Below, piece after piece: positions 5,384 to 49,796 of a DNA stretch of 64,000 nucleotides. How positions within the stretch are numbered: the first letter of the stretch is position 1; the number at the start of each line of letters is the position of its first letter. The DNA comes from Candidatus Saccharimonadales bacterium (GTDB lineage: Bacteria; Patescibacteriota; Saccharimonadia; Saccharimonadales; DATKHC01). The stretch spans positions 6,799-70,798 of the forward strand of contig DATKHC010000001.1 in assembly GCA_035510465.1 (NCBI GenBank). The letters are read 5' to 3'. Under the pieces are notes generated by a model. That model did not search any database, was not told where the DNA came from, and saw only the letters and a program-made list of their open reading frames with translations. The translations under genes and the position numbers were made by a program.

Positions 5384-6901
5384 ATGCAAGCTAACGAAAA
5401 AATTGGCCAACTTATTTACCAAATAAGGCAAGAGCGAGGCTTAACTCAATCCGAGTTCGCCAGCAAACTTGGCACCAGCCAATCAGCCGTTAACCGAATT
5501 GAGCATGGCCGACAAAACTTAAGCCTTGATACTCTAGCTAGAATTAGCGACGTCTTAAATAAACAGCTAATTAGCTTAGAAGGTACCGCTGTTAATCTTC
5601 GTATTGAGGGAGGTCGTGAGCTACACGGAAGCGTGGCACTAAAAACTTCCAAGAACTCTGCTGTGGCACTACTTTGCGCAAGTTTACTAAATCACGGGGT
5701 AACAAGATTCAAGGCCTTTCCAAGAATTGAAGAAGTCTTTAGGATCATCGAAGTACTAGAAAGTATTGGTGTATCTGTTAAATGGCTACCAGGTAACGAT
5801 GTTGAGATCCGACGTCCAGCTAAATTGGATCTTACTCATCTGGACGCAAAAGCCGCCCGTCAAACCCGGAGTGTTTTAATGCTAATTGGGCCTCTCATTC
5901 ATGAGGCGAATAACTTTAAAATTCCTTACGCTGGCGGTTGCAAACTAGGACGAAGAACCGTTGCGCCTCACTTGTATGCCCTGGAGGAATTTGGGGTAAA
6001 TATAGTTGCAACCAGTGGTCACTACAACGTTCAGGTTCACAGAAAAAACCCAGAGCCATTTGTTATGTACCAAACTAGTAATACCGCTACTAATAATGTG
6101 CTGATGGCAGCCGCTTCAACTGCAGCCAAAACCACAGTCCAAGCCGTTAGCGGGGATTACATGGTACAAGATCTTTGTTTCTTCTTACAAAAGTTAGGAG
6201 TTAAGATTGACGGGATAGGCAGCCATTTTCTAGAAATTACTGGGGTACCAAAAATTAAAAAGAATGTTACTTTCGCCCCTTCAGAGGACCCCATTGAGGC
6301 TATGTTTTTCATAGCTGCGGCCGTCGCAACTAATTCTAAAATCACGGTTGAGAGAGTCCCTTATAAATGGATAGGTCTTGAGCTTCTAAAACTGGATAAG
6401 ATGGGCTTAAAGCTCAAACTATCTAAGCCTTACAAGGCAAATAATGGTATTGTCGATTTAACTGATATAACTGTTGGAAAACACAATGGTGAGCTAAAAG
6501 CACTGGAGGATAAAATCGAGCCAAATCTTTATCCCGGCATAAACCCCGATAATCTTCCCTACTTCGTTCCAATCGCTGCTATGTGCAAAGGCAGAACCCA
6601 GATCCAAGACTGGATGTATGAGAACCGGGCAATCTATTTCACTGAAATGACAAAAATCGGCATGCAAGTTGAACTAGCCGATCCGCATAGATTGTTTATT
6701 GACGGTCCAACTCGTTTTTCGAGAGGGGATGTAGTCTGTCCACCCGCCCTAAGACCAGCCAGTTTGCTACTAATAGGTATGTTAGCGGCTAGGGGTGTAT
6801 CAACCCTTAGAAGTGTATACACAATAAACCGTGGATATGAAGATTTGGCCGAAAGACTAAATTCTATCGGTGCTCAAATAACTGTTTTACACGAGCTCTA
6901 G
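5384..6901 (+). CDS. murA: XRE-type HTH domain fused to UDP-N-acetylglucosamine 1-carboxyvinyltransferase
   Basis: Residues 1-65 are an XRE HTH (GLTQSEFASKLGTSQSAVNRIEHG). The rest aligns with MurA: KTSKNSAV (Lys22 region), GGCKLGRR (Cys115 loop), YPGINPD (Asp305 region), and the C-terminal INRGYE. Confidence 0.85.
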   Translation: MQANEKIGQLIYQIRQERGLTQSEFASKLGTSQSAVNRIEHGRQNLSLDTLARISDVLNKQLISLEGTAVNLRIEGGRELHGSVALKTSKNSAVALLCASLLNHGVTRFKAFPRIEEVFRIIEVLESIGVSVKWLPGNDVEIRRPAKLDLTHLDAKAARQTRSVLMLIGPLIHEANNFKIPYAGGCKLGRRTVAPHLYALEEFGVNIVATSGHYNVQVHRKNPEPFVMYQTSNTATNNVLMAAASTAAKTTVQAVSGDYMVQDLCFFLQKLGVKIDGIGSHFLEITGVPKIKKNVTFAPSEDPIEAMFFIAAAVATNSKITVERVPYKWIGLELLKLDKMGLKLKLSKPYKANNGIVDLTDITVGKHNGELKALEDKIEPNLYPGINPDNLPYFVPIAAMCKGRTQIQDWMYENRAIYFTEMTKIGMQVELADPHRLFIDGPTRFSRGDVVCPPALRPASLLLIGMLAARGVSTLRSVYTINRGYEDLAERLNSIGAQITVLHEL

Positions 6902-6914
6902 TTTTAGATTTTAA

Positions 6915-6964
6915 CGCTTTCGTCCTTTTGGACTCATCAGCCTGAACATACATTCAGAGAGCAA
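6915..6964 (-). ncRNA. hammerhead ribozyme, type III topology (stem III open)
   Basis: Minus strand reads UGCUC^UCUGAA-UGUAUG-UUCAGG-CUGAUGA-GUCC-AAAA-GGAC-GAAA-GCG. Both catalytic cores are intact. Stem I is 6 bp and stem II 4 bp, both loop-closed. Stem III is 4 bp. The cleavage triplet is CUC, with C17 at 6959. Confidence 0.8.
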
Positions 6965-7052
6965 AGACAAGCAGAAAAAGTTGGTAAAGGAACAACCCAG
7001 GGGGCAGGATTGGGTTTTTCGCTTTAGTCAGCTCAATCTGCTGTCCTTGCTC
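6959..7052 (-). other. long imperfect RNA hairpin at the 3' end of the islet-1 transcript
   Basis: GAGCAAGGACAGCAGA (7052-7037) pairs with UCUGCUUGUCUUUGCUC (6975-6959). That gives 16 bp with one bulge and one G-U that is valid only on the minus strand. The inner hairpin is AACCCA/UGGGUU. Confidence 0.55.
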
Positions 7053-7095
7053 AGTACATGTCCTTCCGATAGGTTCTTTGTCTGTTGTTACCTCC

Positions 7096-7578
7096 TTAGG
7101 TAGTAGGCAAGGGACGGATTCCCTCGGGCCTGAAACTTGGCCTTGAGATGGCACGTCCTCGTTTTACGGTTCTTCCCCCGTGAGATCTCGTCGTCTTCCC
7201 GCGAGACGGTGTTGTTGGTTGCGTTGCCGCCTGATTGTTCTGTTGTTCCCCAAGCCTCCGAAGAAGCTCGTTTGCAGCAGATTGGCCATAGGCCTTGATG
7301 AAGCCCGTGAGGTGGATTTTTGTGCCTTCAAACCCGATATGGAGTTTGATTTTCCCCTTCCGGACCACTGTTACGCGGCCGCTGTGCTGCTTTGGTACGT
7401 AGCGCAGAGCTTCACCGGGTGTCATTTTCTTGAGCTCTCTTGGTACGAGGCGTCTCCTCACGTCATGCTGTCTGGTCGCGATGTCGGTCGCAATCAGAAT
7501 GGCATTCGTTCGGTGCCTTACAACTGGCTCTGGAATCTCCTTTGCGTCGGGCTCGATTTCCGATAACGTTGTCGTCAC
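7096..7578 (-). CDS. orphan hypothetical protein (160 aa, basic disordered C-terminal tail) in GC-richer islet 1
   Basis: GTG start preceded by GGGGAGAAGGG. The composition is protein-like, unlike the antisense ORF. No family recognised. Confidence 0.45.
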   Translation of the reverse strand: MTTTLSEIEPDAKEIPEPVVRHRTNAILIATDIATRQHDVRRRLVPRELKKMTPGEALRYVPKQHSGRVTVVRKGKIKLHIGFEGTKIHLTGFIKAYGQSAANELLRRLGEQQNNQAATQPTTPSRGKTTRSHGGRTVKRGRAISRPSFRPEGIRPLPTT

Positions 7579-7615
7579 GGTTTTGCCCTTCTCCCCTACC
7601 TAGGCTAACGGTGCC

Positions 7616-7702
7616 ATAGCTAAACTAAAGCTATCTGTGTTTCCTTTACACAGTGAGGTGAGGGGGAAGCCCGCAATTACTTGCGAACTTTCTTCTCACC
7701 TC
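7616..7702 (-). promoter_or_regulatory. structured 5' leader of the islet-1 ORF (three consecutive hairpins)
   Basis: Hairpins at 7655-7702 (GAGGUGAG/CUCACCUC enclosing CGCAA-GUAA-UUGCG with a GNRA loop), 7635-7653 (CUGUGU/ACACAG) and 7616-7634 (AUAGCU/AGCUAU). Confidence 0.4.
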
Positions 7703-7791
7703 ATGATTTCTGCTTGTCAAAATACATCTTTGGATACACTAGCAATATCTTCAAAACTTGAAAAATTTGTGTCTCAACAAAGAATTTAGTT

Positions 7792-7820
7792 AATCTACTC
7801 CCAACGTGCTTGTGTGTCAA
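7792..7820 (-). promoter_or_regulatory. putative promoter for the islet-1 transcript
   Basis: Minus strand reads TTGACA, 17 nt, TAGATT, immediately downstream of tRNA-His. Confidence 0.35.
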
Positions 7821-7828
7821 TAGGTCCT

Positions 7829-7903
7829 TGGGGTGTCCAAAGGGAATCGAACCCTCGTCGCCGCGACCACAGTGCGGAGCTTTACCACTAAGCTATGGAC
7901 ACC
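7829..7903 (-). tRNA. tRNA-His (anticodon GTG)
   Basis: Encoded G-1 opposite C73, acceptor GTGTCCA/TGGACAC, anticodon loop CTGTGGT, T-arm GAGGG-TTCGATT-CCCTT, encoded CCA. Confidence 0.9.
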
Positions 7904-8036
7904 AAAAATATTTCCTATTCCGTGGCCATATTATCACATACAGGCAGCCCCTTAAGAAAGACTGATAACTCAAGTCCGGAATAAAAATAAATGCTTGCAA
8001 GTACAATTTTCTAGGTATATACATATCATTAAAGGT

Positions 8037-8774
8037 ATGGGAGAAAGATTAGCAAAACTCACTAGGCCAAATAGAAGGTCAATGGTACTTAAGTCTCTAG
8101 GGGCCTTAACAGCTGTTTCGCTAGTCGGCGGCTGCGGAAGTGATATCCCAAATTTGGCTGGCTCAGTAGAGATACCAGCTAAATTTGTACCAGTAAATTG
8201 CAATAACACTTTAGAGGAAGCAGAAATTAAAGACAAGGTCGGAAGCCCAATAACACCTCCTGAAGAAGCTATAGATAAAAAAGTTTGCGAGACTGTTAAT
8301 GCCATCGGCAAACAAACCGTCAATAATAATCTTGAAAACCCTAATTTGTACCCGAACAATTCTGATTTCGGCGGGGAGATTGATTTCTTCCTCCAGACCA
8401 ACACCGGACCATATTCGGAGGTAGCATATGCGACTAACTCAAGGGGTGAGCCGATTTACTCTAAGCCACTATATACAATGGTGGGCAATCAATCAAATGG
8501 TATGAAAGGAGACATTGTAATTGTTGAGTCTTCTCCCATTACTCAGCCATTTACTCTGAATGGTACGACTGTGAACGCAACAGGTGTTCAATGGGATGAA
8601 TCTACTCAGGGGCAAGGTAGTCCTACGCCTACTAACTTTGACTCTCTAACCTTCCCGGAGTTCACTGGTGATAATCTAAGTCCTTTACAAATAGAACAAT
8701 CGGATCTGCAGTTATTGCAAATGTACCATCAAGTCTATGTGGATGAGCTTTTAATGTTGCACAATAACCATTGA
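8037..8774 (+). CDS. putative lipoprotein, function unknown
   Basis: Signal peptide with a lipobox-like SLVGGC. The track ORF starts at TTG 7995; ATG 8037 or ATG 8085 is the more plausible start. Confidence 0.55.
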   Translation: MGERLAKLTRPNRRSMVLKSLGALTAVSLVGGCGSDIPNLAGSVEIPAKFVPVNCNNTLEEAEIKDKVGSPITPPEEAIDKKVCETVNAIGKQTVNNNLENPNLYPNNSDFGGEIDFFLQTNTGPYSEVAYATNSRGEPIYSKPLYTMVGNQSNGMKGDIVIVESSPITQPFTLNGTTVNATGVQWDESTQGQGSPTPTNFDSLTFPEFTGDNLSPLQIEQSDLQLLQMYHQVYVDELLMLHNNH

Positions 8775-8784
8775 GAGGCTTTGT

Positions 8785-9102
8785 TCACTGCCAAACTCTT
8801 GACTCATTTTTCGTTTCTTTGGCCTGGAAGGCTTTTTCTAGGTCAATATCGAGTCTGTTGCATAGATCAATAAGCAGCCAAAAAACATCCGCCGCTTCTT
8901 CACTTATTTCGTGTACTTTTGATGCATGGTCAACCTTCTGACCACCGGCCTTACGAATTGCTTTGGCTAGCTCACCTATTTCTTCAATGAGCAGCGTGAA
9001 GACCTCTGACACTGTCTCTTCCCCAAAACCTCGTTCAGTGACTAACTTGCTAATCAGTTTCTGGTATTTTGGCAGCGAGTAGCCTTTATTTGAGTTGCTC
9101 AT
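8785..9102 (-). CDS. MazG-like nucleotide pyrophosphohydrolase
   Basis: 105 aa with an EEIGELAKAIRK ... EEAADVFWLLIDLCNRL pattern typical of MazG/NTP-PPase. Confidence 0.75.
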   Translation of the reverse strand: MSNSNKGYSLPKYQKLISKLVTERGFGEETVSEVFTLLIEEIGELAKAIRKAGGQKVDHASKVHEISEEAADVFWLLIDLCNRLDIDLEKAFQAKETKNESRVWQ

Positions 9103-9284
9103 TTAACTTAAATAGTACAGCTAGAGAGATAAAAAGTTTAGTTTTGATTTAGCCACTTATGCTAAACTTTCTTTCAGGAGTTTTATAGTCTTGATAGGAC
9201 TAAAACGAAAAACACTAACTAGTAAAATAGAAATAGCGGTGGGGCAACCTACCGTTTTTAAATTGGGTAGATGGGAGCGGAAAA

Positions 9285-10334
9285 ATGGTTGGTCTAATTA
9301 GCCCTGAGATTAGAGATGTTGCAGTGCCAATTGCCGGAGAACCTAAGGGCAAAAATTTGTTATCAATGCATCAACTTAACGAAGATGATATTTATATATA
9401 TCTGGAAGAGGCACAAGCTGCTTCAAGACTAGTTGATGACCCATCACTAAGAGGTATCAGGCTCTTACCGCATGCTGTTATGAAGGCGGTCATGAGACAA
9501 CCGTCGACACGTACCGGGGGTAGTATGACCACCGCCATGTTCAAGCTTGGAGGCGCTGGAGAACTTATAAGTGGTATGAGCAGTTCATCTGAAGCAAAGG
9601 GTGAGTCTTTGGCAGATTCCTGGATAGCTTTTGCTACCCAAGCCGACATCCTTGGTATACGTACGGCTGAGGATAACGGACCCGCCTTTGCTGCTAGAGT
9701 TATCGCAGAGTCAGCAGCAGCAGGTAAGTTACCCAGAACCATTCCAGTAATCAACCTAGGAGATGGTAGAAACGAACACCCAACGCAGGCACTCGGCGAC
9801 GAATTTACTATCTTCAGAAAGTTTGGGAGATTTGAGGGACTAGTATTGGCAGTCGTCGGTGATCACGAAAGATACCGCGCTCACCATTCTCTAATGATTG
9901 GTGCTGCGATGCTGGGTATGACCGTAGTGGCGGTCGAGTCGAAGGCAGCAAAAGTTCCCCCAGATCTTGTGGCAGCTATGGGAAACAAGCTTAGCCGAAC
10001 TTACGACTTGGACGAGGCTATGCGATATACTGATGCGCTATACGTAGGCCGAAAACCCGACGAGTATGCTGGCCGCAAATGGCAGGAAAAGCGGCGAGAG
10101 CGCCGACTAGACAGAGACTATAGAAAGTGGGTAATCGACAATGACAGGCTTCAGCAGATGAGTCCCAATGCCTTAGTGCTTCATCCTAGACCACGAAGGG
10201 GTGAACTTCACCCTAGTGTTGACTCAGATCCAAGAATGGGTGATGTAATGCAGATGTATAACATGATAGCTATGCGTATGGCTATTATTGCTCTGCACCT
10301 CGGTGAGTCTATCTCAGAGTATGTAATGTGCTAG
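9285..10334 (+). CDS. pyrB: aspartate carbamoyltransferase-like protein
   Basis: Carbamoyl-phosphate motif STRTG, HPTQALGD, and HPRPR near the C-terminus. Confidence 0.7.
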   Translation: MVGLISPEIRDVAVPIAGEPKGKNLLSMHQLNEDDIYIYLEEAQAASRLVDDPSLRGIRLLPHAVMKAVMRQPSTRTGGSMTTAMFKLGGAGELISGMSSSSEAKGESLADSWIAFATQADILGIRTAEDNGPAFAARVIAESAAAGKLPRTIPVINLGDGRNEHPTQALGDEFTIFRKFGRFEGLVLAVVGDHERYRAHHSLMIGAAMLGMTVVAVESKAAKVPPDLVAAMGNKLSRTYDLDEAMRYTDALYVGRKPDEYAGRKWQEKRRERRLDRDYRKWVIDNDRLQQMSPNALVLHPRPRRGELHPSVDSDPRMGDVMQMYNMIAMRMAIIALHLGESISEYVMC

Positions 10335-10416
10335 TTACTATAAGACCAAATCGATTATAAAAACCCACTCACTGGTGACGTTAATCTAAACATAACGCTA
10401 AAAGCCGAGTAGTTAA

Positions 10417-10884
10417 TTAAATATTGCCAGGGTCTATAGGTTGACGAGTGGCGCTGCTCACGTCGTTCCAAAACTTGTCCGTGGAGACATACGATTTGTT
10501 ATCTATAGTCACTCCTCGGCAACCAGTTGTCGAAGCTGTAGCAGTAAGAGATGGATTCGTGAAAGTGAATGTGTATTCAACGCCGTCGTCCATAGGGCAA
10601 TTATAAATACCAGACGGTGTAGATTTTAATGAGTCTATGTCATTTAAAATAGTAAGCGCAGAGGAACCGCTAACTTTCTTTGTAAAATTACTTACGCCTG
10701 GCTGGTTAAGTGTGTTCTCTCTTTCAATTGTTAGGCCAATTCCGGAAGAATTTTGGGATAGACTGCTGCTATTGTGGTAGTGCTTATATATAAGCCCACC
10801 AACTACTCCAAGCAAAACTATCACAAATACAGTTATTAAAACTTCAACAAGCCCAAAGCCTTGGTTATTTATTTTTTTAATCAT
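10417..10884 (-). CDS. type IV pilin-like protein
   Basis: N-terminal prepilin-type motif QGFGLVEVLITVFVIVLLG. Confidence 0.65.
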   Translation of the reverse strand: MIKKINNQGFGLVEVLITVFVIVLLGVVGGLIYKHYHNSSSLSQNSSGIGLTIERENTLNQPGVSNFTKKVSGSSALTILNDIDSLKSTPSGIYNCPMDDGVEYTFTFTNPSLTATASTTGCRGVTIDNKSYVSTDKFWNDVSSATRQPIDPGNI

Positions 10885-10907
10885 GGCTTGATTATACCTC
10901 TTGTACT

Positions 10908-10984
10908 TGGTACCCCGGGAGGGATTCGAACCCCCGACCTTGAGCTTAGAAGTCTCCTGCTCTATCCAACTGAGCTACCGGGGC
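10908..10984 (-). tRNA. tRNA-Arg (anticodon TCT)
   Basis: Acceptor GCCCCGG/CCGGGGT, D-arm GCTC..GAGC, anticodon loop CTTCTAA, T-arm GGGGG-TTCGAAT-CCCTC, CCA. The anticodon stem has only 3 Watson-Crick pairs. Confidence 0.85.
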
Positions 10985-10992
10985 AAATTAAG

Positions 10993-11067
10993 TGGTGCGG
11001 GATACCGGAATCGAACCGGTCTCTCCAACTTGGAAGGTTGGCATACGAACCACTATACGAATCCCGC
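10993..11067 (-). tRNA. tRNA-Gly (anticodon TCC)
   Basis: Acceptor GCGGGAT/ATCCCGC, anticodon arm CCAAC-CTTCCAA-GTTGG, T-arm ACCGG-TTCGATT-CCGGT, CCA. Confidence 0.85.
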
Positions 11068-13738: not shown

Positions 13739-13815
13739 TGGTCGGGGTGGCCGGATTTGGACCGGCGACCTCAGCGTCCCGAACGCTGCGCGCTACCAAG
13801 CTGCGCCACACCCCG
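13739..13815 (-). tRNA. tRNA-Pro (anticodon CGG)
   Basis: Acceptor CGGGGTG/CACCCCG, anticodon arm CAGCG-TTCGGGA-CGCTG, CCA. Confidence 0.9.
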
Positions 13816-13985: not shown

Positions 13986-14070
13986 CGAAAAAGTACGACA
14001 AGCAGACAGGGAGAAGAAAGGACAGTGTTGCCCAAAAAATTGTCCTTGCTATCTCCCCGCCTGTTTGTCG
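13986..14070 (-). terminator. very long imperfect hairpin plus U-tract at the 3' end of the islet-2 ORF
   Basis: CGACAAACAGGCGGGGAGAUAGCAAGGACA pairs with UGUCCUUUCUUCUCCCUGUCUGCUUGUCG. The G-U pairs are valid only on the minus strand. It is followed by UACUUUUUCG. Confidence 0.5.
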
Positions 14071-14088
14071 AGTCATCTCGATCTGAGG

Positions 14089-14364
14089 TTAATTGCTAAT
14101 GAAAGCAAGTCTCGGATCGACAATGATGTCGCCACGCGGTGTTCTTATAAACTTTGGGTCTTCTTGTTGGGTCGGCACAAATGGTACTGATTGCAAGATT
14201 GTGACTGTGTCACAGTGTTTGCAACGACCTACTAGCCGACACTCCATTTCCCCACCAAGGTGAGGTACGTCGTAACCAGGACAGTTGTGCTCGTCCTCTT
14301 CTGTGCAGAAAAGAACGACGTGATCAACCGAATGTACTACCTTGCAACCGAAGCAATCGGGCAT
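14089..14364 (-). CDS. orphan Cys-rich small protein (91 aa) in islet 2
   Basis: Eight Cys including CFGC and CKHC pairs, which looks like a zinc ribbon. AAAGGA lies upstream of the ATG. No family recognised. Confidence 0.45.
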   Translation of the reverse strand: MPDCFGCKVVHSVDHVVLFCTEEDEHNCPGYDVPHLGGEMECRLVGRCKHCDTVTILQSVPFVPTQQEDPKFIRTPRGDIIVDPRLAFISN

Positions 14365-14508
14365 TGGACTTTTACATCCTTTCTTGGCTATATCCCCAGA
14401 AGTTTTATATAGATAACAAGGAAAAGAACTAGGAATGTTCCTCTAGCTTTTCCCAAAATCTGCTTGTCAATGTTCATCGGAGCAAAGAAGCTCTACAACG
14501 AAGCTAAT

Positions 14509-14537
14509 ATGATAACACGATCTGTAATAAATGTCAA
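14509..14537 (-). promoter_or_regulatory. putative promoter for the islet-2 transcript
   Basis: Minus strand reads TTGACA, 17 nt, TATCAT, downstream of tRNA-Pro(TGG). Confidence 0.4.
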
Positions 14538-14605: not shown

Positions 14606-14682
14606 TGGTCGGGGTGAGAGGACTTGAACCTCCGACCTCCGCGTCCCAAACGCGGCGCGCTAGCCAACTGCGCCACACCCCG
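14606..14682 (-). tRNA. tRNA-Pro (anticodon TGG)
   Basis: Acceptor CGGGGTG/CACCCCG, anticodon arm CCGCG-TTTGGGA-CGCGG, CCA. Confidence 0.9.
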
Positions 14683-48017: not shown

Positions 48018-49796
48018 TTAACGTTTAAGCATGGCTGTGAATGCGTCGGTTGGAATATCAACTTTGCCAAATCGTTTCATCCTAGCCTTGCCTTTTGCCT
48101 GCTTAGCCCAGAGTTTCTTCTTTCTAGAAACATCTCCTCCGTAAAGATGAGCAGTCACATCTTTTTTCAGTGAACTTATATCTTCACGAGCAATTATTTT
48201 ACTGCCAACAGCTGCTTGAAGACTCACCTTAAATAACTGTTTTGGGATAACTTCTTTTAGTTTATTGACACTGGCCCGCCCGATTGATTCTGCTTCGGAC
48301 GCATGAACAATAGTCGATAGCGCGTCAACCCTATCGCCTGCCACTAAAATATCTAGCTTAACCAAATCTGCTGTGCGGTAGTCGATTAGTTCATAGTTGA
48401 GTGAACCATATCCGCTAGTAACGCTTTTCAATTGATCGTAAAAGTTTGTTAGAAGATTTGCTAGTGGTGCTTCGAAATTAACAACCAGCAATTCGTCATC
48501 AACATAGGACAGGTTTTTTTGCTTACCCCTAGCGCTAACTAATAAGTTAAGTACGCTGCCAAGGTGAGCTTTTTGACAGACTATCTCACCCTTAACCCAG
48601 GACTCTTTTATTTCCTCAATCCGGGAGGCATCCGGGAGATCAGTCGCTGATTTAATATCAACCAGTTTGCCATTTTTCAAAATTACTTGGTAGTTAGTTG
48701 AGGGACTAGTTAGTATCAGCTCGAGGTTGTACTCACGCTCTAGCCGTTCACGAACAATTTCAAGATGAAGAAGTCCTAAAAAACCAAGTCTAAGCCCAAA
48801 ACCCAAAACAGCTGAGTTTTCAGGGGCAAACTCGAGCGCAGAATCACTTAAACTGAGTTTCTCAACTGCCGTTTTTAGTATCTGAAAATCGTCGCTACTA
48901 CTCGGAAAGAAGCCTGCATACACAAAGGGTTTGATTTTAACATATCCCGGCAGAGCCTCAGAAGCTAGTTGGCTCGGCACACCCAAAGTATCACCCACTC
49001 TGGCTTGGTTTGCGCTTTTTAGGTTAGTGACAACGTAGCCAATTTCCCCACTTACTAGTTGAGGAAGTGGATTAGGTTTGGGCGATAGTGAACCGACTTC
49101 AAGCGCAATTCCCTCCGTTTTATTCCCTAAAGTCACGATTGGATCATTTTTTTTGAGCAATCCGTCTACTAACCTAACATATAAGACTACTCCCCTGAAT
49201 TCATCAAAATAACTATCGAATATTAAAGCCCTTGTTGGTGAATCTGACTGTCCACTTGGTGGAGGTACCAAAGCTATAACTTTATCGAGAACTTGTTCGA
49301 TTCCCTCGCCAGTTTTAGCTGAAATTTTTAAAATGTCATCAGCACTACCACCCAATAAATTAATAATCTCTCGTTCGGCCTTAGCTACTTGTGCTGCTGG
49401 CAAGTCAATCTTATTGATGATCGGGATAATTTTTAAGTCTGCCTCGACGGCCAGGTAAACATTGGCCAAGGTTTGGGCCTGAATACCTTGAGTAGCATCT
49501 ACTATTAGCAGCGCGCCCTCACAAGCAGCTAAACTTCTCGATACTTCGTAGCTAAAATCGATATGCCCGGGCGTATCTATTAAATTTAATTCAAGGCCTT
49601 TATAGCTCATTTTTACAGGAGCTAGCTTGATGGTAATCCCTTTTTCGCGCTCCAGATCCATTTGGTCAAGTACTTGAGCCTTCATATGACGTTTATCGAT
49701 GGTCCCCGTGATCTCTAAAATACGGTCGGCTAAAGTGCTTTTCCCGTGATCAATATGAGCAATTATGCAGAAATTACGTATTTTTGATTGGTCCAT
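48018..49796 (-). CDS. lepA: translation elongation factor 4 (LepA)
   Basis: AHIDHGKST G-domain and full-length LepA similarity. Confidence 0.95.
   Translation of the reverse strand: MDQSKIRNFCIIAHIDHGKSTLADRILEITGTIDKRHMKAQVLDQMDLEREKGITIKLAPVKMSYKGLELNLIDTPGHIDFSYEVSRSLAACEGALLIVDATQGIQAQTLANVYLAVEADLKIIPIINKIDLPAAQVAKAEREIINLLGGSADDILKISAKTGEGIEQVLDKVIALVPPPSGQSDSPTRALIFDSYFDEFRGVVLYVRLVDGLLKKNDPIVTLGNKTEGIALEVGSLSPKPNPLPQLVSGEIGYVVTNLKSANQARVGDTLGVPSQLASEALPGYVKIKPFVYAGFFPSSSDDFQILKTAVEKLSLSDSALEFAPENSAVLGFGLRLGFLGLLHLEIVRERLEREYNLELILTSPSTNYQVILKNGKLVDIKSATDLPDASRIEEIKESWVKGEIVCQKAHLGSVLNLLVSARGKQKNLSYVDDELLVVNFEAPLANLLTNFYDQLKSVTSGYGSLNYELIDYRTADLVKLDILVAGDRVDALSTIVHASEAESIGRASVNKLKEVIPKQLFKVSLQAAVGSKIIAREDISSLKKDVTAHLYGGDVSRKKKLWAKQAKGKARMKRFGKVDIPTDAFTAMLKR

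Follow-up and report, generated by a model that had tools for sequence, protein, structure and literature searches.

The DNA examined was a window of 64,000 nucleotides (nt), the whole stretch that was analyzed, from a Candidatus Saccharimonadales bacterium (contig DATKHC010000001.1 of GCA_035510465.1, positions 6,799-70,798, forward strand). Between the end of murA and the gene for tRNA-His(gtg) lies an islet, here called cassette 1, which reads on the minus strand from a promoter through a structured leader and an open reading frame (ORF) of 160 amino acids (aa), ORF160, to a hairpin and a type III hammerhead ribozyme (Table 1). Judged from its sequence, the islet is one member of a widespread, previously unannotated family of cassettes with a conserved RNA scaffold and variable cargo. 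We consider it rather probable that it is an inserted, autonomous single-gene expression cassette, belonging to a chromosomal family of Saccharibacteria (TM7), whose mRNA ends with the hammerhead.

The islet is GC-richer than its surroundings, as a preliminary description of this DNA had claimed. GC content has its maximum of 0.545 at 7201-7600 (top of 160 windows of 400 nt) in a stretch that mostly lies at 0.36-0.46, and the islet interior stands at 0.52 vs. 0.41 in the surrounding contig. Other elements of that description were found again on analysis: long ORFs on both strands (160 aa on the minus strand, an overlapping one of 128 aa on the plus strand), the promoter TTGACA-17-TAGATT, a ~200-nt leader that forms three hairpins in a row, one with a GUAA tetraloop, the Shine-Dalgarno-like sequence, GTG start and 160-aa frame of ORF160, its lack of a recognizable protein family, a 16-bp hairpin downstream of it, and a hammerhead beside the islet end. 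The islet is flanked by housekeeping genes (murA, glyA, murB, OTCase and tRNAs). MurA proteins with 69-78% identity were found at 80 loci, nearly all of them labelled Saccharimonadales, and by this sequence comparison the window is part of a Saccharibacteria (Saccharimonadales) chromosome.

Comparison with these loci indicated an insertion. The distance from murA to the minus-strand tRNA-His is 4 bp in locus L024, 56 bp in locus L070 and 927 bp in the window, and relatives thus provide the empty sites, with tRNA-His abutting murA, that the preliminary description had proposed as a test. No module was present at murA in 78 of the 80 Saccharimonadales loci; in relatives the tRNA-Gly/Arg/His block follows within 18-120 bp past murA. 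A regular expression and a ribozyme model (R1), applied to 843 kb of related DNA, found hammerheads in the window and in locus L002 only, and no att-like duplication (direct repeat of the tRNA 3' end) was found at the islet's distal end. In the L035 gap, an 11-nt inverted repeat was considered as a further module and rejected, as it lies in an ordinary coding region, probably purD-like (by eye). Of the earlier suggestion of a small foreign or selfish module, the foreign part stood, with an inserted position, empty sites and non-host codons; the selfish part was not shown, because no mobilization machinery was found.

Table 1. Coordinates of cassette 1, its neighbors and the second cassette within the 64,000-nt window
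Feature	Position	Strand	Details
murA	5384-6901	plus	fused to N-terminal XRE-type helix-turn-helix (HTH) domain
Islet (cassette 1)	6902-7828	minus	between murA end and tRNA-His
tRNA-His(gtg)	7829-7902	minus	upstream neighbor in same orientation as cassette; insertion-site marker, outside cassette
Sigma-70-type promoter	7820-7792	minus	TTGACA (7820-7815), 17-nt spacer, TAGATT (7797-7792); 10/12 consensus matches
P1, 5'-terminal leader hairpin	7782-7728	minus	CUUUG (7782-7778), UUGAGA (7777-7772), long loop or inner stem, UCCAAAG (7734-7728)
Box A (5' arm)	7718-7707	minus	GACAAGCAGAAA; 12/12 complement of box B, 729 nt downstream
Three consecutive leader hairpins	7703-7654, 7653-7635, 7634-7616	minus	span 7616-7703
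Shine-Dalgarno-like sequence	7596-7586	minus	GGGGAGAAGGG; 7 nt before GTG
ORF160	7578 (GTG) to 7096 (stop)	minus	160 aa; basic Arg/Thr/Pro-rich C-terminal tail
Giant hairpin of 3' untranslated region (3'-UTR)	7052-6959	minus	16-bp stem: A' GAGCAAGGACAGCAGA (7052-7037) with UCUGCUUGUCUUUGCUC (6975-6959)
Box B (3' arm)	6977-6966	minus	UUUCUGCUUGUC; 7 nt upstream of cleavage site
Type III hammerhead	6972-6908	minus	Rfam Hammerhead_3 match 6966-6912
Hammerhead stem III 5' strand	6963-6959	minus	UGCU + C17
Predicted cleavage site	between 6959 and 6958	minus	triplet C-U-C, cut after C6959
Hammerhead stem I	6958-6941	minus	
Hammerhead core and stem II	6940-6918	minus	CUGAUGA-GUCC-AAAA-GGAC-GAAA
Hammerhead stem III 3' strand	6917-6915	minus	GCG
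Second cassette	13996-14537	minus	same family, without hammerhead
Second-cassette promoter	14537-14509	minus	TTGACA (14537-14532), 17-nt spacer, TATCAT (14514-14509)
Second-cassette box A	14469-14459	minus	TGACAAGCAGA; same box as cassette 1
Second-cassette ORF91	14364-14089	minus	Cys-rich, 91 aa
Second-cassette box B	14006-13996	minus	TCTGCTTGTCG; after 3' hairpin
Second-cassette neighbor tRNA-Pro(tgg)	14606-14682		
Second-cassette neighbor tRNA-Pro(cgg)	13739-13815		

The end of the ribozyme and the murA stop codon are 13 nt apart, and the ribozyme has the features of the type III class: a core CUGAUGA...GAAA with A15.1-U16.1, an NUH cleavage triplet, loops that close stems I and II, and an open stem III. 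It was matched by Rfam Hammerhead_3 (RF00008) with 28.2 bits (E = 0.0016 on a 1.4-kb search), below the gathering score of 48.5, and ten other family hammerheads scored 28-43 bits, again all below 48.5. These low scores are accounted for by the short stem III and the compact loops, the core not being broken; standard annotation would miss this ribozyme design, because all 11 Rfam-scored members remain under the gathering score. Model R1 gave the window hammerhead 69.8 bits, with the window sequence being part of the R1 training set. At least 120 loci were returned from a metagenome scan with the 24-nt ribozyme core, and 95 distinct hammerhead sequences among the matches listed were aligned for pair counts, in which stem II was fixed by the search pattern and is uninformative. 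In this alignment 94.1% of cells were paired; shuffling gave 71.8%, and sliding the partners as a control gave 32-44%. Stem I was 99.5% paired with 6/6 pairs covarying, and stem III had 4 covarying pairs. The same core is found directly past the murA stop of L002 (77% MurA identity), where stem I is CAUAAAU/AUUUAUG vs. CUGAA/UUCAG in the window and stem III is CCAC/GUGG vs. UGC/GCG, and all of these pair. As stems I and III covary across the 95 sequences, the family hammerhead is, by comparative analysis, a genuine hammerhead class. No other self-cleaving or known RNA was detected in 6700-8100 (Rfam, E ≤ 10) or in 13 other modules (E ≤ 0.5).

The members of the family follow a common plan, which consists of a sigma-70 promoter, P1, about 8 nt, box A, often a GGUGAG...CUCACC hairpin, a Shine-Dalgarno sequence with one ORF, a 3'-UTR hairpin, box B, 7-10 nt, and the cleavage site with the ribozyme. 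The promoter, P1 with UUGAGA...CUCC, and box A occur in this order in >15 members. The upstream motif TCTGCTTGTC(A), which lies at 6975-6966 in the window, was present with ≤ 2 substitutions in the 30 nt before the ribozyme at 36 loci among the matches listed (37 with the window), and 13 of these 36 have a complementary box copy 447-978 nt upstream, as in the window. For the metagenome loci listed, a complement of ≥ 10 nt was found upstream in 10/42, vs. 2/42 in the downstream control. Box A is 10-13 nt long in the family, and the sequences of boxes A and B differ between loci: GCACCAACGCAC and GTGCGTTGGTGC in L222, CAATCCATCCAA and TTGGATGGATTG in L283, AAGGAAGAAGTG and CACTTCTTCCTT in L248, GACAATATGAG and CTCATATTGTC in L314, TGATAAGCA and TGCTTATCA in L277, TGACATGTA and TACATGTCA in L260, and CAGGCAGTAT and ATACTGCCTG in L002. 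Nine arm classes with unrelated sequences were distinguished, in which cognate arms are perfect complements over 9-14 nt and arms of different classes over a mean of 5.06 (maximum 9). Box complementarity is thus conserved beyond mere sequence, because nine classes keep cognate 5'-3' pairing.

The longer metagenome loci are flanked by housekeeping genes (ATP synthase, LigA, HtpX, MalQ, P-type ATPase), and the flank of L236 encodes an AtpD that also occurs, unchanged, in TM7 oral taxon 349. Judging by such flanks, the family resides in Saccharibacteria (TM7) chromosomes, both environmental and human-oral, and it apparently extends to oral TM7 strains that can be cultured. A box-plus-ribozyme query gave no blastn match in 50,697 phage records (INPHARED) or 72,556 plasmid records (PLSDB). 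Fifteen IMG/VR matches to box B ... CTGATGAGTCC were considered as phage copies and discarded as false positives, as they represent the coding region of one phage group and are without GAAA. Long-range arms were not enriched at IMG/VR hammerheads (4 upstream vs. 6 in the control). The scaffold thus appears to be chromosomal, and the ribozyme type is shared with phages.

A second cassette of the same family occurs in the window between two tRNA-Pro genes, whose separation is 154 bp in L028, 28 bp in L011 and 790 bp in the window. The 11-nt box occurs 5 times in the window vs. 1.6 expected, and 4 of the 5 occurrences are arms of the two cassettes. Codon usage of ORF91 is host-like, with a codon adaptation index (CAI) of 0.709. 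The sequence past box B of this cassette is gtactttttCGTTAgttaaa, in which CGTTA matches the bases after the cassette-1 ribozyme and may be a scar of ribozyme loss. Two tandem cassettes that share boxes GCACCAACGCA/TGCGTTGGTGC were observed on the high-GC contigs L266 and L252, where a hammerhead ends only the second; their cargo has ~65-69% GC and lies between AT-rich promoter and leader sequences.

Transcription would start from the promoter of cassette 1, which begins 9 nt past the 3' end of tRNA-His. A promoter scan was not significant overall (5 sites vs. 2.3 ± 1.7 expected), and what lends the islet promoter credibility is its constant position in the cassette family, other members of which have an equivalent promoter in the same place. 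P1 begins a few nt at most from the predicted start of transcription. Its family consensus, read from side-by-side modules, is yCUUUUG-UUGAGA...CUCC-CAAAAG, and the outer stem covaries (CCUUCG/CGAAGG, ACUUUG/CAGGGU, CAUUG/CGAUG, UUCAG/CUGGA, GUUUCG/CGAAGC). This covariation is a manual count, because RNAalifold called no pairs on the MAFFT leader alignment, in which the 3' strand of P1 was mis-registered. Box A contains TTGACA and was considered as an internal promoter, which was rejected since no -10 element stands at the right spacing in the family members read. The first of the three leader hairpins past box A, P3, is GAGGUGAG...CUCACCUC (7703-7654) with a nested CGCAA-GUAA-UUGCG tetraloop hairpin, and a GGUGAG...CUCACC hairpin past box A recurs in L002, L246, L263, L312 and L314. 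The fold of the whole 886-nt transcript gave z = -5.4 vs. shuffles. As the complement strand folds at z = -4.7, the strand of the islet is not decided by structure alone.

At the other end of the message, the 3' strand of the giant hairpin comprises box B, the 5' strand of stem III and the cleavage-site C, with U6970 bulged and an inner hairpin at the tip. Its 5' strand is A', a third copy of the box, which class-A members carry as a direct repeat just past the stop codon. The giant hairpin and the active ribozyme are mutually exclusive, because A' pairs with box B and the stem III 5' strand. In the processed RNA the terminal pairs of the giant hairpin have predicted probabilities (P) of 0.97-1.0 (C6959-G7052, P = 0.97), and the tail of the cleavage product is predicted to be paired up to the last 0-1 nt in most class-A members. 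A 10-nt perfect complement was also seen between a site in ORF160 at 7275-7284 (CAAUCUGCUG on the RNA) and the 3' half of A' at 7034-7043. Its length is within chance; if real, it would free box B while the ORF is untranslated.

ORF160 is a predicted orphan cargo protein, for which the coding evidence is thin. It had no Pfam or PHROG match at E < 0.1 and no PADLOC match, and only itself was returned from a word-indexed search of 5.8 billion clusters and a full phmmer search of 1.84 billion representatives. Its CAI is 0.594 vs. 0.741 ± 0.015 for the host, with GC at third codon positions (GC3) of 0.57 vs. ~0.39, and by codon usage the ORF is foreign, in line with the earlier view of the islet. 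Homology to the cargo of L002 at the same site was considered and rejected (BLASTP E = 38; 97/500 shuffles attained the Smith-Waterman score of 32), the resemblance by eye being chance. Among the matches listed, modules nearly always contain one sense ORF, of 77-317 aa, that fills the space between the arms. No cross-similarity between cargo ORFs was found by BLASTP, near-identical copies excepted, and the module interiors share no sequence and no detectable Rfam family. In 28/31 modules the interior exceeds the surrounding contig in GC content. A Pfam scan of 20 cargos returned one DUF2807, one Tad4 and one weak Rce1-like/CPBP protein, with nothing significant for the rest. L277 and L302 have no sense ORF ≥ 50 aa. 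The longer ORF is sense in 23/31 modules, antisense in 6 and tied in 2. An invertible segment was considered for the 6 modules with a longer antisense ORF and rejected; the one inspected, of L277 (94 aa), is not protein-like.

A cassette of human oral TM7, the one with the AtpD flank, was available in several diverged copies, in which the ORF keeps 108 codons with no insertions or deletions (indels). Changes clustered at third positions (for example 44 vs. 15 and 18 at positions 1 and 2), and strains with 94% identity in the flanks had 83% in the module. Cargos can thus be real, fast-evolving proteins, because this ORF shows third-position bias and an indel-free length. The Tad4 cargo was that of L263 (OEIV010018929.1), where the cassette lies between tRNA-Tyr and tRNA-Thr (E = 1.4e-9, 38.7 bits vs. 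a cut-off of 25); Tad4 is a type I Thoeris inhibitor, and L263 therefore has an anti-defence-type protein in a ribozyme-ended cassette. The cassette of L231 (WBZM01006388.1), with the weakly Rce1-like/CPBP cargo, is flanked by two large serine-recombinase-like ORFs (553 and 503 aa), and its surroundings look like the context of an integrative element.

From the layout of the sequence the following course is inferred. The cassette would be transcribed from its own promoter, and the hammerhead would cleave after C6959, making an mRNA 3' end without an intrinsic terminator and detaching the message from read-through transcript, which would run antisense to the convergent murA. The short stem III would release the mRNA, of which the last 17 nt would fold with A' into the giant hairpin; in members without A', the mRNA 3' end would pair with box A in the leader instead. 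The message would thereby have a 5'-terminal hairpin and a fully paired 3' end, and resistance to exonucleases would be expected. Hairpins at the 5' terminus protect bacterial mRNAs.

Several points weigh against this account, besides its being drawn from the layout. Stem III of the window has 4 bp including a G.U, and the first pair of stem I is U.G. The active fold in the window is predicted to cost 12.4 kcal/mol over the A':B hairpin/minimum free energy (MFE) fold; predicted costs elsewhere are 15.0 kcal/mol in L263, 7.0 in L206, 6.5 in L002, 1.4 in L222 and about 0 in L243, L248, L283 and L314. Such a cost could, as modelled, reflect a switch, a slow ribozyme or decay, and cleavage in the window is expected to be slow, conditional or decaying and not constitutive, because the predicted A':B hairpin would mask the cleavage site. 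The A:B helix of the window is 5.0 kcal/mol worse than A':B, with P near 0 in the processed RNA and box A largely unpaired. A 'closed loop' would hence fit other members more than the window copy, as A:B loses to A':B in the latter. The 3'-UTR fold is stabler in the sense strand in 18/27 cases, which is weak evidence from modelled folds of selection on the RNA, and the window shows the opposite. The second cassette of the window and the first of the two tandem cassettes in L266 have no hammerhead, and because such copies exist, the ribozyme is dispensable for keeping a cassette. As to ORF160, no frame-specific codon signal was detected (GC at codon positions 1/2/3 = 0.57/0.50/0.57; in-frame CAI no better than out-of-frame), and a single-sequence AlphaFold2 model had a mean pLDDT of 54, too poor for fold comparison.

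The arms may also be read at the level of DNA, with boxes A and B as inverted-repeat sites at which a recombinase or transposase captures, swaps or inverts the ORF, and with RNA pairing secondary. We judge this unlikely, though it is compatible with the RNA model. It would explain unrelated ORFs within a conserved scaffold, one box common to both window cassettes and another common to the tandem pair of L266, tRNA-adjacent insertion with empty sites in relatives, the third direct copy (A') past the ORF in class-A modules, and the two large serine recombinases around L231. Yet no recombinase was found at the islet locus over ~3.4 kb on one side and 10 kb on the other (Pfam list), the promoter, P1 and hammerhead lie outside the arms and are conserved with them, and A':B helices keep pairing via G.U-compatible changes (L263, L312). 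Moreover, sense ORFs predominate over antisense ones with no inverted state recognised, and the box layout is unlike integron attC, as the upstream box matches the 5' arm of the hairpin and a GTTRRRY core is absent.

Absence of codon periodicity and of an in-frame CAI advantage in an orphan ORF, the opposite-strand frame, the strong fold (z = -5.4), interiors that are GC-richer like structured RNAs in AT-rich genomes, and the members without an appreciable sense ORF (L277, L302) would all suit an RNA-only element: a structured non-coding RNA of ~830 nt, in whose GC-rich sequence ORF160 would occur by chance. This is improbable in our estimate, however, given the Shine-Dalgarno-like sequence 7 nt before the start codon, one sense ORF between the arms in nearly every member, the third-position bias and conserved length of the oral TM7 cargo, the cargos that match Pfam families, the interiors without a shared sequence or detectable Rfam family, and a complement that folds almost as well. 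About equally doubtful is a wider proposal, that of a new gene-cassette system in which unrelated, fast-evolving and often foreign, GC-richer ORFs would be slotted into an RNA scaffold (5' hairpin, genome-specific complementary boxes, terminal hammerhead). Boxes and ribozyme would then have a role beyond message stabilization, serving for example as an A/A'/B switch, with translation- or trans-factor-dependent cleavage, or as handles for capture or exchange via an RNA or single-stranded DNA intermediate.

A circular-RNA or viroid-like element (Obelisk, retrozyme or 'Tornado'-like), whose hammerhead and arms circularize or RNA-replicate a ~0.8-kb unit encoding a small basic protein, is very improbable. 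The islet resembles Obelisks, retrozymes and viroid-like RNAs in size (~0.8-1 kb for the class, ~830 nt here), a type III hammerhead, one small ORF, basic in this case, and a high degree of structure, and the arms bring the 5' region beside the cleaved 3' end in many members. It differs from them in that the unit is encoded in the chromosome and has a promoter of its own, the MFE fold is branched and not rod-like, and ORF160 has no protein relative and hence no Oblin-like family. There is also one ribozyme per unit, and because no second self-cleaving motif was found near the 5' end (Rfam, E ≤ 10), that end would be a triphosphate and not ligatable. An ordinary chromosomal gene with a chance hammerhead-like motif, which the sub-threshold Rfam score and the housekeeping flanks might suggest, is scarcely credible, being contradicted by an identical design that covaries across 95 sequences, by L002, whose ribozyme stands in the same place near murA and has changed in compensatory fashion in stems I and III, by the empty sites in relatives and by the foreign composition. 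The inserted, ribozyme-ended expression cassette is retained as the preferred reading.

Further observations concern the neighborhood. In most relatives (L005, L011, L018 and others) the genes next after murA are tRNA-Gly, tRNA-Arg and tRNA-His, all on the plus strand. The window (7829-11067) and L002 have this block in inverted form, with His, Arg and Gly on the minus strand and additional genes among them, and the cassette lies at the inversion junction. Gaps between these tRNAs range from tens of bp to several kb among relatives, and the block is a variable region for that reason. The MurA of the window has HTH_3 at residues 11-62 and EPSP_synthase at 75-492. All 80 relatives align from residues 1-5 onward, and the HTH-MurA fusion appears from these alignments to be conserved in this Saccharimonadales group. 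Elsewhere in the window, at 49717-49784 on the plus strand, Rfam AsrC (RF02746) gave a partial match to model positions 46-113 of 886 (33 bits, E = 3.7e-6), far below the gathering score of 111.

In the literature, no description was found of an mRNA scaffold with covarying boxes, of its chromosomal spread in Saccharibacteria, of tRNA-adjacent insertion, or of A/A'/B competition at the cleavage site, and nothing relevant was found on hammerheads in Saccharibacteria or the candidate phyla radiation (CPR) or on hammerhead cassettes. The preferred cassette reading was compared with known systems as follows. Phage morons are autonomous promoter-ORF-terminator units inserted between genes. The islet family is like them in its compact one-gene unit with its own promoter, deviant composition, variable accessory cargo (one Tad4-like) and presence that varies among relatives. 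It differs in that a ribozyme stands for the intrinsic terminator and the UTR scaffold is constant across unrelated cargos; moreover, the islet has housekeeping flanks with no prophage and no phage blastn match. Integron gene cassettes share single-ORF units with highly variable and mostly orphan cargo, an imperfect 3' hairpin with a bulged base and variable tip, and an occasional tandem arrangement (L266). In contrast to these, the islet has its own promoter and an attached hammerhead, no intI or attI lies nearby, the islet boxes GACAAGCAG/CTGCTTGTC are without GTTRRRY/RYYYAAC cores, and the upstream box matches the 5' arm, not the 3' arm, of the hairpin; the recombinase-free distances given above apply here as well. 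For IS200/IS605 elements a Y1 TnpA or TnpB ORF between subterminal hairpins would be expected; ORF160 has no such match in Pfam or PHROGs at E < 0.1, and the cargos are mutually unrelated.

Stem-loops at the 5' end and hairpins at the 3' end stabilize mRNAs, for example the ompA 5' UTR and repetitive extragenic palindromic (REP) 3' hairpins, and ribozymes are used as synthetic insulators. The likeness to the islet family lies in P1 at the predicted 5' end, the paired 3' end after predicted cleavage, and a message uncoupled from its genetic context; the difference is that the family would be a natural, family-wide combination of both ends with a hammerhead, of which no description was found in the literature.

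The bacterial and phage type III hammerheads (RF00008) have the same catalytic core, three-stem topology and NUH site as the islet ribozyme, and those of IMG/VR phages have the same compact design (upstream hairpin, stem III of 3-5 bp, UGAGUG- or AUGUGUA-type stem I loop, AAAA stem II loop). Many IMG/VR phage contigs (L082-L201) carry compact type III hammerheads after a palindromic hairpin such as GTGTCTTCAAAGACAC, and in L089, L108 and L147 two ribozymes lie ~0.9-2 kb apart. Prophage hammerheads were described as flanking single genes or short gene blocks 'whose identities are not constant', with function unknown (Perreault et al., 2011; PMC3088659). The islet family differs from known type III hammerheads in that its ribozyme forms the 3' end of a conserved mRNA scaffold in Saccharibacteria chromosomes. 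No settled biological role has been assigned to the hundreds of hammerheads catalogued in bacteria and phages in 2011, and the cassette family offers a concrete, testable one, since it fixes the hammerhead at a constant place, after a 3' hairpin or leader-pairing box, closing an autonomous accessory gene. This arrangement predicts a 2',3'-cyclic-phosphate 3' end at C17, stabilization dependent on A/A'/B, and insulation from neighbor genes. Through the family, a class of variable Saccharibacteria genes also comes to light, mostly orphans and one of them Tad4-like, and in minimal epibiont genomes such cargo genes may bear on host or phage interactions. Hammerheads that flank variable prophage genes were already known (PMC3088659), and what the cassettes add is a conserved scaffold with covarying boxes in Saccharibacteria.

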